Shown: positions 15,001-21,000 of the stretch, one piece after another
Layout of the letters: each line of letters begins with the position of its first letter
How positions within the stretch are numbered: the first letter of the stretch is position 1
From: Candidatus Micrarchaeaceae archaeon
GTDB lineage: Archaea; Micrarchaeota; Micrarchaeia; Micrarchaeales; CABMGC01
DNA: 21,298 nt
NCBI GenBank assembly: GCA_038873795.1
Contig: JAVZDR010000006.1
Location: forward strand, 1-21,298
Direction: 5' to 3'
Program-made: the position numbers

Positions 15001-18000
15001 GCGCCTTTGCTATTCTGCCCTTTGCCTCGTACTCAGCATTTGCTTCGCCAGATGCTCTTATGCTTGCAGCCTCTGAATCCGCAGCTTTCTTAGCGTCTTC
15101 AAGCATCTGCCTGGCCTTGGATTTAGCCTCCTCTAAGAGCCGCTCGGCCTCAGCCTCAGCCTGCCTCTTGAGAGTTGCAGCTTCTTCTGCCGCTTTCTGC
15201 TCTATCTCTTTCTCTATAGCTTCTAGGGCCATGCAAACCCCTTATATTATCCCGGCGTATAGCATGACCAATATGGCTATGACGAAGCCGAAGATGAGGA
15301 GAGTTTCTGGCAGCACCAGGAAAAGCAGCACAATGCCCATCTGGTCTGGTTTCTCAGCTATCAAGCCAAGCCCAGCGCTGCCTATTCCGGACTGCGCCAT
15401 TCCTGTGCCTATTGCTCCTCCAGCTATTGCTATCCCTGCGCCGATTGCCGCTATCGCGGCTTCAGTTGTTATTGCCATAAAACCATCTATTCCTCTTTAG
15501 TATAAAACCTCTTATAAGAGAAGGGCCTAAACTTAATGCCGCCGCCCATGTAGAACTTTGAGAAGAACTCCACAAAATTCAGCCTTATGCCTTGCACTAT
15601 GCCCTCGAATATTGCGAGTATCATATTCAGGAAGTGAAGCATTATAAATACAATCAGCAGCGCAAAGAAGACGAGTATGCCATGGGCAAATGTCGGCGTG
15701 AAGGCCATATCTATAAGCATTGCTATTATTACGCTCCCCAAGCCGAAGCCCATCAGCCTCGCATAGCTCAGAGGGTGGGTTATGAGGTTTGTAAGCTCGC
15801 TCGCCTCTATGCCGCTCAATGCGCCGGTTGCGCCAAGGGCTATCACAGCTATTATTGCAGTGGGCACAGCCAATGATGCGCTGAGCAGGCCGAAGAAGCC
15901 GCTTGCAACCGCGACTGTGCCGAAGGCTATTGTTGCTATGCCAGTGAGCTTGCTTACAGCGAGCTTTTTCTTGTTGTGGTTATAGTCGTTTACGAAGCCG
16001 AAGAAGAGGCCGAGGCAGACCTGGACTATGCCAAAGAGTATGCTTATGCCTATTATGACTGTAGCGTCCTTAAGCCAGCTGAAGCCAGCGAAATTGATAA
16101 AGTACTGGTTGAGCTGGAAGCCGAAGTATTGGTTTGAAAGGAAGCCAAAGACTATGGCAGAGAGAGAAGTTAGCTGCCAGATCTTCGCTGCGTTGTGCAC
16201 AAGGCCTTCTGGATTTGTTATCTTTGCTATCCATGTCACAAAAAGCAGAGATGCAAGCCCGTAGCCGACATCGCTGACCATTAGGCCGTAGAAAATGGGG
16301 AAGAAAATTATGAAGACCCATGTTGGGTCTATCTCATCGCTTCTTGGGACTGAGTAGAATTCCATCATATAATCGAATGGCTTGAGAAAGCCAGGCCTAG
16401 ACATGAGCGTAGGTGCCAATTCGTCTGCCTTTACCTCTTCTATATAATACCTGCCCTTTGCAGCTCTTTTTATGCCCTCTTCAAGGCTAGCCATACTCCT
16501 CTTAGGAAGCCAGCCCTCTACAACAAACGTGCTCTCTGTCCTCTTGAATGAGCTGCTTATGCCAGCCCTTGCAGCCTCTATCTCAAGCATTTCCTTTATG
16601 CTTGCAAGCTCGTTGTAATGCCTTATGCTTATCCCGGCAATTTCGTCGTTGATCCTCTTGAGCCGCACCGAATATTCCTTTTCGAGCCGCTCTACATTCT
16701 TGAGCACAGTCTCTGGCTTAGCGTCCAAGTACTTTGCGCCCAAATCTATCTCCCTGAGCTTGGCCTCCTTTATTGCCTCTTCTATGCTTGAGGATTTTTC
16801 ATAAGCCACTAGCATGCCGATGTTTTTCTTGCCTGAGCCAATTATCACCTCAGCCCTTATCTTGGATTTTGAAATAAGATCTGCAGCCTTCTCCGCTTCC
16901 TTCCTCTCAGCCTCGAAAGCCCTGAATGAAAGTACACCGCTCCTTAATGCGCCGAAATCTATGCCAGTGCCTTCAAAGAGCCTCGCCACATGCGCTGCAT
17001 TCCTAAGCGCCGCAATCTCGTCACCGAGCTCCCTTCTGGTGTCATTGAGTTTGTATATCCTATCAATGATGTCATATCCCCTGAGCCTTGCCAAAAGTGC
17101 GGCAACCTCCTCATGGGCTTCGAGGTGTGCAGGCCTCTTCCATGCTTCGCTCCTCTTTTTCTTCCTCTCTATAATCTGCAGCGCACCTCCAACCTTTATA
17201 AGCATCTCAGAGATCTCGTTCAGCGATTCTGCAGGCGCATCATCCATGACCTGCAAGCCCCCTTTCCTTATCTCAAGCACGCCAAGCCTATGCAACTCCT
17301 TTATGATGGCCTGCTTGTCGCTCTGCAAGCCTATGATTCTCACTTTCTGCATCCGCTCCGTGCGTAACATCTATGCACCTAGGATGAGCCTCACAATCTC
17401 CTTTACTATCTTCTTCCTCTTTGCTTCGCTGAGCTTTAACCTGCCGAGCCTTTCTGCCACATCATCAGCCTCAGCAATCTTCCTGTTCTTCAGTTCAGCC
17501 ACAGACTTTTCAGCACTTTCAAGCACCTCATTCCTGATTGCTTTAGCCTTAGCTTCCGCCTCTGCAATTATTGCTGCAGCCTGCTCGTTGGCCTTTGCAA
17601 TCCTCTCCCTCTTTTCACTCTCGGCCTTTTCTATCAGTTCTTTTGCCCTCTTTTCTGCGCTCTGGACTTTGTTTATTGCGTCGGCGCCCTGCATCCAATC
17701 ACAATTAGCTACATTATAAACTTATAAAGCGCAACAATTTTAATAGTTAGCCACTTTTTCCAAAATTCCATTGTGCCAGCGGAAGGGAAAAGCAAAATGC
17801 ATAACCCAAATTGGCAAATATAGATTGTGATAACCTGGCATGCAGAACTATTTCAGAAAAAGATATAAAGGGCAAGAGGCATAATATTTGCGTGGTGCGC
17901 GGGTGGCTTACCGTTTTTTAACGGAGGAAGCTCTCCCCATGCAGAGATTGCGAATGCCTAAGGCATAATTCGATACAGAAACGAACCGCTGCCGCACATT

Positions 18001-21000
18001 GCCATGACAATACGAGCGTGCGGGTGCGGATGAAACGCATCGATGCGCAATCGGTGAGCATGCAAGGCATATGCCGCTTAGTCGGATGCCACCTAAAACA
18101 GAAGGGAGGCTACGGCGCACCACATAATGCTATTTGCTTCCAAATACTGCAAACACGCACGCCAAACCATAAAAAAAGCTTTGCTGTTTTGCTGATATAC
18201 CTCATGATTTGGCGGGGGCGAGATTTGGACACGCGACCTCTAGATTTCTTAGCAATCATAGCAAAATGCTCATCACTCATAATGCTTGGCATATGAGTCT
18301 AGCGCTCTAACCAGGCTAAGCTACCCCGCCAACTATTATAGAATTATCGGAAATATTATTATTGCTTTCTATGGTGCAAAGAGGCAATGCAGAGATGGTA
18401 AAGGCCCTTGTTGAGGAGGGCGATGCCGACGAAAAGGTTGCCAGGGCAATGCTGAAATTTGACAGGAAGGACTTCTTGCCAGAGAGCGAAAAGGAAAATG
18501 CGTATGTGGATGTGCCACTGCCAATAGGTGATGGCCAGACAACATCAGCACCAAGCATAATAGCATTTATGCTGAAGAGCCTTGAACTACGCAAAGGCAT
18601 GAAGGTGCTGGAGGTCGGCACAGGCACTGGTTATCAGACCGCATTGCTCTCAGATCTTGTGGGGAATAGCGGTTCTGTAATAAGCATGGAAATATCAAGG
18701 GTCATTTTCATGTTTGCATCGCAGAACATAAAAGCCCACAAGATAAGCAATGTCAAGCTCGTAAATGCCAATGCACTAGTAGCATACAAGCAGTATGCGC
18801 CATACAACAGGATAATATTCTCAGCGGCAATGAAAAGGCTTGATGAGGATGTGGCAATGGCGCTTGTAGATGGTGGCATAATGGTAGCACCAATCGGCGA
18901 TTTCTTCGGCCAATATCTGTACAAGATAACAAGATCTGGAAACAGCCTTGAAAAGGAGGCGTTGCTACCAGTGGCGTTCGTAAGCATACTGCCGTGAATT
19001 TTTATTGGAGTAGCGCTGATTTTCTGTAATATATTTATATTTTTTCTACACATAACCAATATATGGTTCCTTTTGCTAGCTTTGTAGAATCAATCTTTAG
19101 TTTTACTGCTCTGCAGATCAACCTCTACAATCCCCAGAATGTTGGCTTCTACTCGGCAATTGTTATAGCGTTGCTTCTTGGCTTCATCCATGGCATAACC
19201 CCGGACGAGCATACGTGGCCCATCACTTTCTCCTATGCTGTGGGAAGCTACAGCACAAAAGGAGGGGCAAAAGCCGGCTTGATATTCTCTGCAGGCTTTA
19301 CAGTCCAGAGGACTGTGCTTTCAGAAATTGCATACTTTGCACTGGCCGGCATATTCATGACAGCTGCGGCATTCGGCATAACCTACATTGTTGTTGGCAT
19401 TGCGATGTTTGTTGCAGGTATGTACATAAAGAATAAGAAAATCTACCCGCATTGGCATTGGCTTGAGGGTAAACTTGCATGCCTCATTGGTATACACAAA
19501 GCTGGGAGCAGGTGTTACAAGCTTGAAGAGGCACACAAGCTCAACCCCATAGACTCGACAGACGCGACAAAGGAACTCAAGGCTGTGCCATTGAGGCTTG
19601 CTTTCCTGCATGGCGTGATAGCCGGCTTCGGCTTCGGCGCTTTTGCGCTAATAATCTATACCGTGCTCTCGCCAGCAATGCCAAACGCATGGGTCGGCTG
19701 GATTCCTGGCTTTATGTTCGGCATCGGCACAATGGCGATGCAGATATTGTTGGGAGCGGGCTTCGGCAAATGGCTCTCAAGGGTGAAGAGGCTCACGCAG
19801 AAGGGCATAGCCTTCGTAGCAAGGACCATAAGCTCTGACGTGCTCTTCTATGGTGGAGTTGCGTTCATCTTTGCTGGCATTCTGATACTTGTATATCCGC
19901 AGATCCTTAATTATGGGATCTCCACAGGCATAAAGATACACAACCTTGACAATTTGGGATTTGGCTTTTTCATAGTGATATTTGTTGTTGTTGTGATCGC
20001 TCTCTTATCGTACTTCAGGGCAATGCGAATTGCTAGCGAGTCAAAGGCATTGTGCTGTGCAACAGGCGCATAAAATCATATGCACAATATTTGCGCAATG
20101 GCGTAGCTAACATAAAAGGATTTAAAACTTGCAATTTATACAATATTGTGATTTATTGAACTTTGGGGAATACGTCGAAAAATACAGGCAGCAGGTATAC
20201 AAGACAATATGCAATTATGTACCAATCAAAGACCCAGTTGAGCACTACTCTATAATGCGCGACTACATAGACAGGCAGGGCAAATACAGAAGGCCTGGGC
20301 TTGTGATGCTTACGGGCCAGCTCTTCGGCGCACCGATAGATAAGCTCATACTTCCGGCAGCGGCCCAGCAGCTCTCCGAGGACTGGATACTTATGCAGGA
20401 CGATATTGAAGATGATTCAGAGCTGAGGCGCGGGAAGCCCGCTGCCCAAAAACTTTATGGCTGGGTGCACGCCCTAAATGCATCAAATACAGGGCACATG
20501 GCTATGTGGCGAATACTCAAGGACTACATGCTCCAGGTTGGCCCTGAAATAGGCAACAGAATGTACGAGAAGTTTTATGACATGCTTACTTATACTGTTG
20601 AAGGCCAGCACATTGAAAACAACTTCATCCACTATACGAAAGATCTGAGCAAGGTCTCAGAGGATTTTTATTACAGAATTGCAGACAGCAAGACCTGCTA
20701 TTACACTGTCTATGGACCTATGCAGATAGGAGCCATAGCCGCAGGTAAAGACGACAGCACTCTGGCAATGCTAAAGGAGATAGGTAAGCCTGCGGGAGTG
20801 GCATTCCAGATTGTCGACGACATACTCGACATGACTGCCGACGAGGCAAAGTTCGGCAAGAAAAGATACGGTGATCTCTACGAGGGCAAGGTCACACTCA
20901 TAATACTGCATACATATGCAAGCGCAACCAAAGATGAGCAGGAAAGGATCAATGCCATATATGCAAAGAAGAGAAGCGAGAAGACAGCAGAGGAAATAAA

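Follow-up and report, generated by a model that had tools for sequence, protein, structure and literature searches.

The window, a 21,298-nucleotide stretch of contig JAVZDR010000006.1 from a Candidatus Micrarchaeaceae archaeon, carries an RNase P RNA gene on its forward strand (Table 1). The RNaseP_arch family (Rfam RF00373) matches over the full model at 101.7 bits, above the gathering score of 84 (E = 9.5e-28), the sole such match in the genome, and the RNA is single copy; the type T family of the Rfam scan has no match at the locus. With a score above the cut-off, the P4 pseudoknot with its bulged U, and conserved regions I–V, the sequence hallmarks of archaeal RNase P RNA are present. The sequence is a real RNase P RNA and the only one detected in this organism. 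Upstream, the TATA box ATATAAAG is situated at 17863–17870, approximately 22–29 nt before the RNA, and a TATA-like run with the same spacing exists in 31 genomes of the order inspected by eye; the assignment of a promoter, judged from sequence, is likely. Among 101 Micrarchaeales genomes, 97 contain an RNase P RNA match, and G005, G040, G092 and G097 contain none. The RNA measures 226–244 nt in 67 aligned sequences, and the other 30 lie within this range by their match coordinates.

Table 1. Features of the RNase P RNA locus (positions along the window)
Feature	Position	Strand	Basis
Likely promoter: A-rich BRE-like stretch and TATA box	17856..17870	+	read from sequence
RNase P RNA gene, 232 nt	17892..18123	+	RF00373, 101.7 bits
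P1 5' strand, pairs with 18115-18123	17892..17900	+	98.8% paired
P2 5' strand (pairs with 18088-18094) and P3 hairpin (17911-17924)	17901..17924	+	covariation alignment
P4 5' strand with bulged U, pairs with 18104-18111; catalytic pseudoknot	17929..17937	+	
P5 5' strand, pairs with 18058-18062	17938..17942	+	98.5% paired
K-turn-like loop, non-bulged strand A-GA, between P5 and P7	17943..17945	+	
P7 5' strand, pairs with 18046-18052	17946..17952	+	double changes at 6/6 pairs tested
Single junction hairpin, read as P9; 4-bp stem, UAA loop, invariant AA; no P8	17955..17965	+	
P10/11 5' strand (17970-17974, pairs with 18039-18043) and conserved region II	17970..17985	+	
P12 with K-loop cap (18001-18017)	17986..18029	+	alignment and motif count
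Conserved region III, second T-loop strand	18031..18038	+	
K-turn-like loop, bulged strand GGU-GA, between P7 and P5	18053..18057	+	
J5/15 (CAA) and 3-bp P15 with AUAU loop	18063..18075	+	alignment

The RNA consists of helices P1–P5, P7, a single junction hairpin, P10/11, P12 and P15. On the 67 Micrarchaeales RNAs, 94.8% of the cells pair under this structure, and 52 of 62 pairs show double changes; none of 500 shuffles reaches the observed pairing, and slid controls give 31–41%, so the covariation reported in the first-pass annotation holds on this set. Unaided, RNAalifold finds P5, P7, the single hairpin, a 4-bp P10/11, P12 and P15, and misplaces P2, P3 and P4. The single-sequence fold (z = −2.67), which finds P1, the hairpin, P12 and P15 and misses P2–P5, was left out of the structure model. 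P4 is 99.4% paired with double changes at five of its eight pairs, and its bulged U is invariant. Both conserved loops, ACAGAAACG and UGAAACG, are present. In P1, tandem G-C pairs kept in 66 and 65 of the 67 RNAs form a candidate receptor for L9. P12 is closed by a K-loop (GC-CAU-GA-CAAUAC-GA-GC) whose NNU-GA...GA pattern occurs in all 67 RNAs; it is preceded by an A-rich bulge of 3–6 nt with Watson–Crick flanking pairs, not tandem GA. The P15 stem is GGC/GCC, there is no space for P16, P17 or P6, and L15, 3–8 nt long, is without GGU in 67 of 67 RNAs. The deletions described earlier (P6, P16, P17, the GGU of L15 and, very probably, P8), the 3-bp P15 and the K-loop are confirmed in the 232-nt RNA.

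A single hairpin between P7 and P10, UGCC-UAA-GGCA in the window, characterizes 64 of the 65 parsed Micrarchaeales RNAs. In 12 of 15 parsed multi-hairpin relatives of the class, a Y-YAA/UAG/UCA-G loop caps the last, P10-proximal hairpin, and in 11 of those 12 the hairpin before it has a GNRA-type loop; the full P7-P8-P9-P10 junction is found in relatives G131, G136 and G192. Because the YAA-type loop is P10-proximal in these relatives, the kept hairpin is very probably P9, with P8 missing; the same assignment had earlier been based on one relative. The hairpin could instead be P8, or a P8/P9 hybrid with P9 lost, in which case the S domain would not be type-M-like: in the Rfam consensus P8 carries the UAAG-like loop and P9 carries GAGA, and the P9 loops of the Methanococci are YGAGAR in 18 of 18, unlike the YAA here. 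This is improbable, given the position of the same loop behind a GNRA hairpin in the relatives, the alignment of the junction stem to P9 by cmscan, and the description of L9–P1 as the only long-range contact kept in archaea (PMC8450104). With the hairpin read as P9, the conserved AA of its loop would probably dock on P1. An RNA of 191 nt without any such hairpin, also noted previously, is found in a sister family (genome G112), and the RNAs of family f20 have no P15.

Between P5 and P7, at the hinge of the two domains, the two helices enclose a 3-nt bulge and then a GA that faces a GA on the other strand, which is the arrangement of a K-turn. The loop is present in 63 of the 67 order RNAs, as GA/GA in 59 (55 by the strict parser, 59 by the relaxed one) and as an xAA/GU variant in four. 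Either form occurs in 22 of 43 RNAs from related families, and GA/GA in 10 of 31 from the Aenigmatarchaeota sample; the loop was not found among 19 Methanococci, 29 Nanoarchaeota-sample, 23 other-phylum and 19 multi-hairpin-clade RNAs. K-turns habitually have a purine at the second bulge base and a U at the third, and the strict matches contain the purine in 55 of 55 and the U in 52 of 55. Compared with the K-turn motif in its standard and complex forms, including Kt-11 and Kt-15 (PMC4316175), the hinge loop shares the bulge, the GA/GA and the two helices, but mostly has one extra base on the non-bulged (5') strand. This base is present in 52 of the 55 strict matches, where the non-canonical helix does not continue flush after the G.A pairs as it does in the other three; because of it, the loop is not a standard K-turn and is a complex K-turn at best. 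At 2b the variant carries U in place of the A that standard K-turns require, and with its G.U/A it is similar to Kt-15 (PMC4316175).

On this sequence pattern, K-turn geometry is slightly favored, and the loop is possibly an L7Ae site between the two domains. It may instead be, at somewhat under even odds, an internal loop with conserved tandem G.A pairs or a point of contact for another RNase P protein, in an RNA that is simply type-M-like. The extra nucleotide and the U at 2b suit such a loop. So does its absence from those 19 of the 43 related-family RNAs that likewise have no P8, by which the loop would be dispensable; furthermore, Methanocaldococcus RNase P functions although it has no such loop, and can in part do without its K-turns (PMC9371926). 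Against this, the bulge, with its purine second and U third, matches the P12 K-loop of the same RNAs, flush canonical forms exist in families f2, f6, f16 and f17 and in nine Aenigmatarchaeota-sample RNAs, and P7 varies freely with covariation while the adjoining loop stays fixed. The hinge loop looks like a new feature; the RNase P literature consulted places K-turns only in P12 and P16–17.

Reviews recognize three types of archaeal RNase P RNA, with type M confined to the Methanococci and Archaeoglobi. The first-pass annotation assigned the RNA to a type M architecture, and the deletions indeed match: the order RNAs and those of the Methanococci have in common the absence of P8, P6, P16, P17 and the L15 GGU, the short P15, the three-way P7/P9/P10 junction, both T-loop regions and a K-turn motif in P12. 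However, type M is also defined by an elongated, uninterrupted P10/P11 stem (PMC1874661) and contains a double K-turn in P12 (PMC5499556), and neither is found here. P10/11 has 4 bp in 38, 5 in 12, 6 in 8 and 7 or 9 in 2 of the 65 parsed order RNAs (5 bp in the window RNA; no clear count in 5), whereas 15 of 18 Methanococci have 9 bp, two have 8 and one has 7. P12 carries a single K-loop in 67 of 67 order RNAs. In addition, the P9 loop is YAA in the order and YGAGAR in the Methanococci, the K-turn-like P5/P7 loop corresponds to a one-sided bulge of 5–6 nt in the Methanococci, and RPP30 of the order is shorter and divergent, with no HARP. The label 'minimal' falls away, since the RNAs of the Methanococci are of similar size, 229–267 nt, and those of the order are not smaller.

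The presence of P8 is already known to vary within types M and T (PMC3579882). The P8-containing variant of type M, described in A. profundus and A. veneficus as well as in F. placidus (PMC3579882), has no L15, P16, P17 or P6 and fits most RNAs of the Nanoarchaeota- and Aenigmatarchaeota-centred samples, while the window RNA is without P8. Type T (Thermoproteaceae) also combines a reduced RNA with a short RPP30, and two of its three variants have no P8; however, it has given up RPP21 and the bulk of the S domain and keeps P15–P17 and P6, the opposite of the order RNA, which is not of type T. With type A (Pyrococcus, Methanothermobacter; RF00373 consensus) the catalytic core and conserved regions I–V are shared, but type A has P8, P6, P16, P17, L15 and the P16–17 K-turn (PMC5499556). 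The comparisons with Archaeoglobi and type A are drawn from the Rfam consensus and published descriptions, not from sequences.

Type M RNase P has five protein subunits, and its RNA alone shows no activity in trans. Genes for POP5, RPP29 and L7Ae are present in the genome. Directly upstream of POP5 lies a divergent RPP30 frame (E = 8.8e-9 with an HMM from 26 class proteins); RPP30 has no Pfam match in this genome at E ≤ 0.001 and none in NCBIfam or PDB sequences, and reaches E ≤ 0.05 with Pfam in just 17 of 33 other order genomes. A loss of RPP30 was rejected on account of this frame and the Pfam signal in those 17 genomes. RPP21 was not found in the assembly by protein searches. All 33 other order genomes in the class sample contain it, whereby a loss as in type T was rejected, and its absence is likely an assembly gap, since the neighborhood of RPP21 in a same-genus genome is likewise missing from the assembly. 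HARP is found in none of 101 order genomes, in agreement with PMC6380272. None of the 32 ARAGORN tRNA calls, read by eye, encodes CCA, which fits the loss of the L15 GGU.

The earlier framing as a trait of the order is not supported, since most sister families and some other DPANN are also without P8. Among parsed RNAs, a single junction hairpin occurs in 37 of 40 from related families, in 11 of 25 from the Aenigmatarchaeota-centred sample and in 7 of 23 from another DPANN phylum. A short P15 prevails in every DPANN sample, in nearly all parsed RNAs, and in 19 of 19 Methanococci; a pattern scan that pre-selects a short P15 served for leads and labels only, with no frequencies drawn from it. 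Neither the loss of P8 nor the short P15 is specific to Micrarchaeales. The breadth of the short P15 could mean that the absence of P16, P17 and P6 is ancestral to DPANN and some euryarchaea, with only the loss of P8 repeated. This seems unlikely, as a P15 extension of 40–42 nt in 5 of 23 parsed Aenigmatarchaeota-sample RNAs (several unparsed ones look alike) would then call for regain or repeated loss, and type A is regarded as the ancestral form (PMC1874661).

In the EF-2 tree, a single gene, one clade unites the multi-hairpin families (SH-aLRT 100) and a second one the single-hairpin families together with Micrarchaeales (SH-aLRT 86); family f4 was scored as two-hairpin by eye after the first tree, and the automatic fold gives it one hairpin. 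A transfer of type M RNA has been proposed for A. fulgidus (PMC3579882), and the architecture here might likewise have been gained from Methanococci or Archaeoglobi. On 113 core columns, too few to discriminate, a clade of order and Methanococci is not rejected (p-AU 0.087, and 0.76 on a poor search), nor is monophyly of the class, and core identity of the order RNAs is 70% both to Methanococci and to the multi-hairpin clade. However, the best RNA-core tree leaves the order and the Methanococci apart, a comparison that covers Methanococci and no Archaeoglobi RNA. The YAA loop is common to two-hairpin relatives of the class and not to Methanococci; differences also extend to P10/11, the hinge and P12; and full-length identity is 60.5% to Methanocaldococcus against 64–81% (at least 73% in 6 of 7) to records labelled Micrarchaeales or Micrarchaeaceae. 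Transfer is therefore very improbable, and the same losses as in Methanococci likely arose independently.

Overall, the observations are best explained, with a probability of about 70%, by a protein-dependent, strut-less RNase P RNA shaped by independent stepwise losses, with P9 kept and a K-turn-like loop at the hinge. The RNA retains the catalytic pseudoknot, the A anchor in J5/15 and both T-loop regions, so pre-tRNA would be expected to be measured and cut as by Methanocaldococcus RNase P. Simultaneously, the RNA struts and the loop pairing with the 3'-CCA (P6, P8, L15, P16 and P17) are shed, and for this reason POP5, RPP30, RPP21, RPP29 and L7Ae most likely hold the two domains in register. 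The hinge loop (NNU-GA opposite (A)GA), acting as a K-turn and possibly bound by L7Ae, would fix the bend between them. Within DPANN, and independently of Methanococci, P15 would have been shortened broadly first, and P8 then lost at or near the base of the clade containing Micrarchaeales and about 18 related families.

As stated earlier, literature searches found no published description of this plan for Micrarchaeales, although the supplementary alignments of PMC3579882, PMC4919917 and PMC6380272 could include DPANN RNAs. Tentatively, Micrarchaeales, the related families and some Aenigmatarchaeota may represent a distinct RNA type, in which an L7Ae-bound P5/P7 kink-turn would replace the struts and determine how the catalytic domain is angled to the specificity domain. 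Such a type would stand at one extreme of stepwise losses across DPANN, beginning with P16/P17/P6, followed by P8 and then by P9 and most of P12 (down to 191 nt), through which the type M plan would have been reached independently several times. If this pattern is true, the plan without struts or CCA dependence is widespread and has evolved repeatedly, and its origins are natural replicates for the old question of how proteins replaced RNA scaffolding toward a eukaryote-like enzyme. If the domain hinge forms a K-turn, RNase P would have a third kind of L7Ae site, and L7Ae a direct structural role, which is still unclear for Methanocaldococcus (PMC9371926). RNAs of 191–232 nt with five small proteins should be easy to reconstitute.

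The RNase P RNA gene of the window matches the full archaeal Rfam model (RNaseP_arch), the only match in the 600-kb, 94%-complete genome. Its neighbours are the gene for subunit H of an A-type ATP synthase and, in convergent orientation, a tRNA gene with an intron; a TATA-like box lies about 25 nt upstream. ARAGORN run on the window did not detect this tRNA, and the intron-allowing scan of the genome assigned it to Ser. The RNA is 64–81% identical to seven records depositor-labelled Micrarchaeales or Micrarchaeaceae (at least 73% in six), 60.5% to two Methanocaldococcus records and only 63% to one record labelled Micrarchaeum sp.; these similarities and labels are the basis of the order name. 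A match is present in 97/101 Micrarchaeales genomes, a tally that counts G027 and G068, whose RNAs were left out of the analysis. An RNase P RNA of bacterial class A in another genome of the order is probably bin contamination.

A 62-pair structure model taken from the window RNA was scored on 67 of the 97 matched order RNAs (33 from family f1, 33 from f3 and 1 from f2; 226–244 nt), with 94.8% of cells paired and double changes at 52/62 pairs. None of 500 shuffles reached this value, and slid controls gave 31–41%. Without guidance, RNAalifold yields P5, P7, a single hairpin, a 4-bp P10/11, P12 and P15. In all 67 RNAs, L15 spans 3–8 nt without GGU, and P12 terminates in NNU-GA-(6–7 nt)-GA. The structural description in the first-pass annotation is accurate.

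Type M is defined by the absence of P8, L15, P16, P17 and P6 (PMC4919922, PMC1874661), with an elongated, uninterrupted P10/11 as a further criterion (PMC1874661). The window RNA is real and type-M-like, sharing these losses and probably operating as type M does, but falls short of some defining features. P10/11 measures 4–6 bp in 58/65 parsed order RNAs versus 9 bp in 15/18 parsed Methanococci, and P12 carries one K-loop, whereas type M carries a double K-turn (PMC5499556). Nor is the earlier label 'minimal' supported, since Methanococci RNAs have a similar length (229–267 nt). P8 is known to be labile, because some type M variants have been described as keeping it and some type T variants as lacking it (PMC3579882); further RNase P RNA variants have been predicted (PMC4919917). 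The deletions themselves are already known; the extended range and a loop between P5 and P7 appear undescribed, and both are directly testable. Literature searches covering the main text of non-subscription papers, the broad ones down to their 30 top-ranked entries, found none that treats RNase P RNA structure in Micrarchaeota. The only DPANN report found, in the available text of PMC3655853, concerns the nanoarchaeon Nst1, whose very short RNase P RNA could not be folded.

In the Rfam consensus, a UAAG-like loop sits on P8 and GAGA on P9; hence, the window hairpin loop, C-UAA-G, might point to P8. For comparison, other families of the class supplied 62 RNAs, some chosen for the best scores and the rest for family coverage (101/116 genomes searched had a match). 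Among the 15 parsed sequences bearing two or three hairpins (f9, f12, f15, f18, f27), however, the same loop type occupies the last, P10-proximal hairpin in 12, and the preceding hairpin has a GNRA-type loop in 11 of these 12. The full P7-P8-P9-P10 junction is seen in G131, G136 and G192. By position, these relatives indicate with a probability of roughly 85% that the kept hairpin is P9, as proposed earlier from the loop sequence of one relative. L9-P1 is described as the sole long-range contact remaining in archaea (PMC8450104). Both A residues of the P9 loop are invariant and tandem G-C pairs are retained in P1 across the order alignment, which fits this contact; we infer the docking.

The trait is not order-specific. 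Among 40 parsed related-family RNAs, 37 have one junction hairpin, two have none (G112 and G133) and one has two. An EF-2 tree built from 67 proteins separates a clade of the multi-hairpin families (SH-aLRT 100) from a clade of the order and the single-hairpin families (SH-aLRT 86). This split by hairpin number suggests that P8 was lost once, below the order. The tree uses a single gene, and the two-hairpin label of f4 was given by eye once the first tree had been seen (the automatic fold gave one). Matches occur in 38/41 genomes of an Aenigmatarchaeota-centred sample, 57/61 of a Woesearchaeota-centred sample and 24/31 of a third DPANN phylum, which the EF-2 tree places as the sister group of the class. 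Among the 30 best-scoring RNAs of each of the first two samples and all 24 of the third, P15 spans at most 20 nt in 18/23, 26/28 and 23/23 parsed RNAs, respectively, and a single hairpin occurs in 11/25, 2/28 and 7/23, some perhaps misfolds. Loss of P16, P17 and P6 is thus widespread in DPANN, and P8 loss recurrent.

Other relatives are reduced or altered differently (table). In the 191-nt G112 RNA, P5-P7-P10 form one almost continuous helix, P12 is a stub and both T-loop regions are kept; the G133 RNA (f17) likewise lacks both hairpins. The catalytic domain of the f20 RNAs looks eroded, as P5, P15 and the GCUUAG element are unrecognisable. Many multi-hairpin relatives show the opposite simplification, keeping P8 and P9 without a long-range P7, as do 13/23 third-phylum RNAs. 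Three RNAs of the Aenigmatarchaeota-centred sample are reminiscent of type T.

With respect to origin, a tree joining the order with Methanococci was 14 log units worse yet not rejected (p-AU 0.087; RNA core), and another RNA-core test with a poor search gave p-AU 0.76. Core sequence identity does not discriminate either; the core is too short to decide on transfer. The P9 loop is YGAGAR in 18/18 parsed Methanococci, while YAA is common to the order and its two-hairpin class relatives. Since the order RNAs also differ from Methanococci in P10/11, P12 and hinge, these diagnostic characters favour convergence, and vertical inheritance of the RNA is favoured.

At the hinge, the internal loop between P5 and P7, the window RNA has AGA facing GGU-GA. 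A strict parser found a 3-nt bulge with GA facing GA in 55/67 order RNAs and an xAA/GU form in 4; a relaxed parser raised the first count to 59 and left the second at 4, the other RNAs being 3 negatives and 1 that did not parse. Among the strict matches, the bulge carries a purine at its second base in 55/55 and U at its third in 52/55. Either form occurs in 22/43 related-family RNAs, and GA/GA, mostly flush, in 10/31 Aenigmatarchaeota-sample RNAs. The loop was not found in 19 Methanococci, 29 Nanoarchaeota-sample, 23 third-phylum or 19 multi-hairpin-clade RNAs; Methanococci mostly have a 5–6-nt bulge on the opposite strand. From sequence, K-turn geometry is slightly favoured, and a functional L7Ae site is a more tentative proposal. 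Points against an L7Ae-bound K-turn are one additional base on the non-bulged strand in 52/55 strict matches (flush in 3), U at 2b in the xAA/GU variant and the loop's absence from 19/43 P8-less related-family RNAs. Complex K-turns bear extra bases on that strand, and the xAA/GU variant resembles Kt-15, which has a G.U.A triple (both PMC4316175); the genome's L7Ae retains, by eye, the N-E..K...R residues named there for K-turn binding. As far as the available text of PMC5499556, PMC13462272 and PMC9371926 goes, RNase P K-turns are placed only in P12 and P16-17. A K-turn at the hinge would lie where the two RNA domains, linked solely via P5-P7 and P1-P9, need proteins for rigidity (PMC6565675).

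POP5, RPP29 and L7Ae genes are present, and a 183-aa frame immediately 5' of POP5 encodes a divergent RPP30 (E 8.8e-9 against a class-built HMM; no match in NCBIfam or PDB). RPP21, present in 33/33 other order genomes, was not found in this assembly, nor was its neighbourhood from a same-genus genome. No HARP was detected in any of the 101 order genomes, in agreement with a report of DPANN without HARP (PMC6380272). By eye, no tRNA gene call encodes CCA. The mechanism is likely that of M. jannaschii RNase P: two RNA anchors would measure the acceptor-T arm, P4 would hold the metals and proteins the frame, and the substrate 3' end would not be read.

Coordinates and loci of the RNase P RNA gene, its relatives and side observations
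Feature	Location	Genome	Remark
RNase P RNA	window 17892-18123 (+)		Rfam, 101.7 bits
tRNA, CAU anticodon, intron	window 18210-18330 (-)		Rfam
831-aa double ABC ATPase	window 3171-5666 (+)		C-terminal part resembles phosphoribosyltransferase (by eye)
Bacterial class A RNase P RNA	L062:20-350	G009 (C8)	243 bits; 1.4-kb contig
RNA without P8 and P9	L096:29-219	G112 (f13)
f20 RNA	L101:24-231	G210
f20 RNA	L105:25-242	G178
P12 a short stem-loop without K-turn	L080, L083, L096-L100, L103, L104		nine class RNAs (f5, f13, f14, f16)
Short P12 without K-turn	L350, L351		Aenigmatarchaeota sample
Multi-hairpin relatives without a long-range P7	L071, L073-L075, L077, L078, L084, L088, L118, L124		f9, f12, f15, f18
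Type T-reminiscent RNAs	L340, L341, L353		T-loop regions seemingly absent; 40-nt P15 extension with GAUGA motif kept
P5/P7 with GAUGA (5' strand), UGA (3' strand)	L370	G265 (Methanococci sample)	perhaps K-turn of opposite polarity
3'-end repeat pair	L510:512-583 and 1287-1358	G018	ParE-like toxin enclosed
3'-end repeat pair	L511:332-396 and 2061-2125	G010	AbiEii-like toxin enclosed
3'-end repeat pair	L512:397-462 and 1841-1906	G094	AbiEii-like toxin enclosed

In 3/101 order genomes, the RNase P RNA gene has its last 65–72 nt duplicated 0.8–1.7 kb downstream with 97–100% identity, and the repeats enclose a two-gene module with a toxin. Inside the three modules an integrase ORF is absent. They look like small toxin-antitoxin islets inserted at the RNase P RNA gene in the manner of insertion at a tRNA gene.
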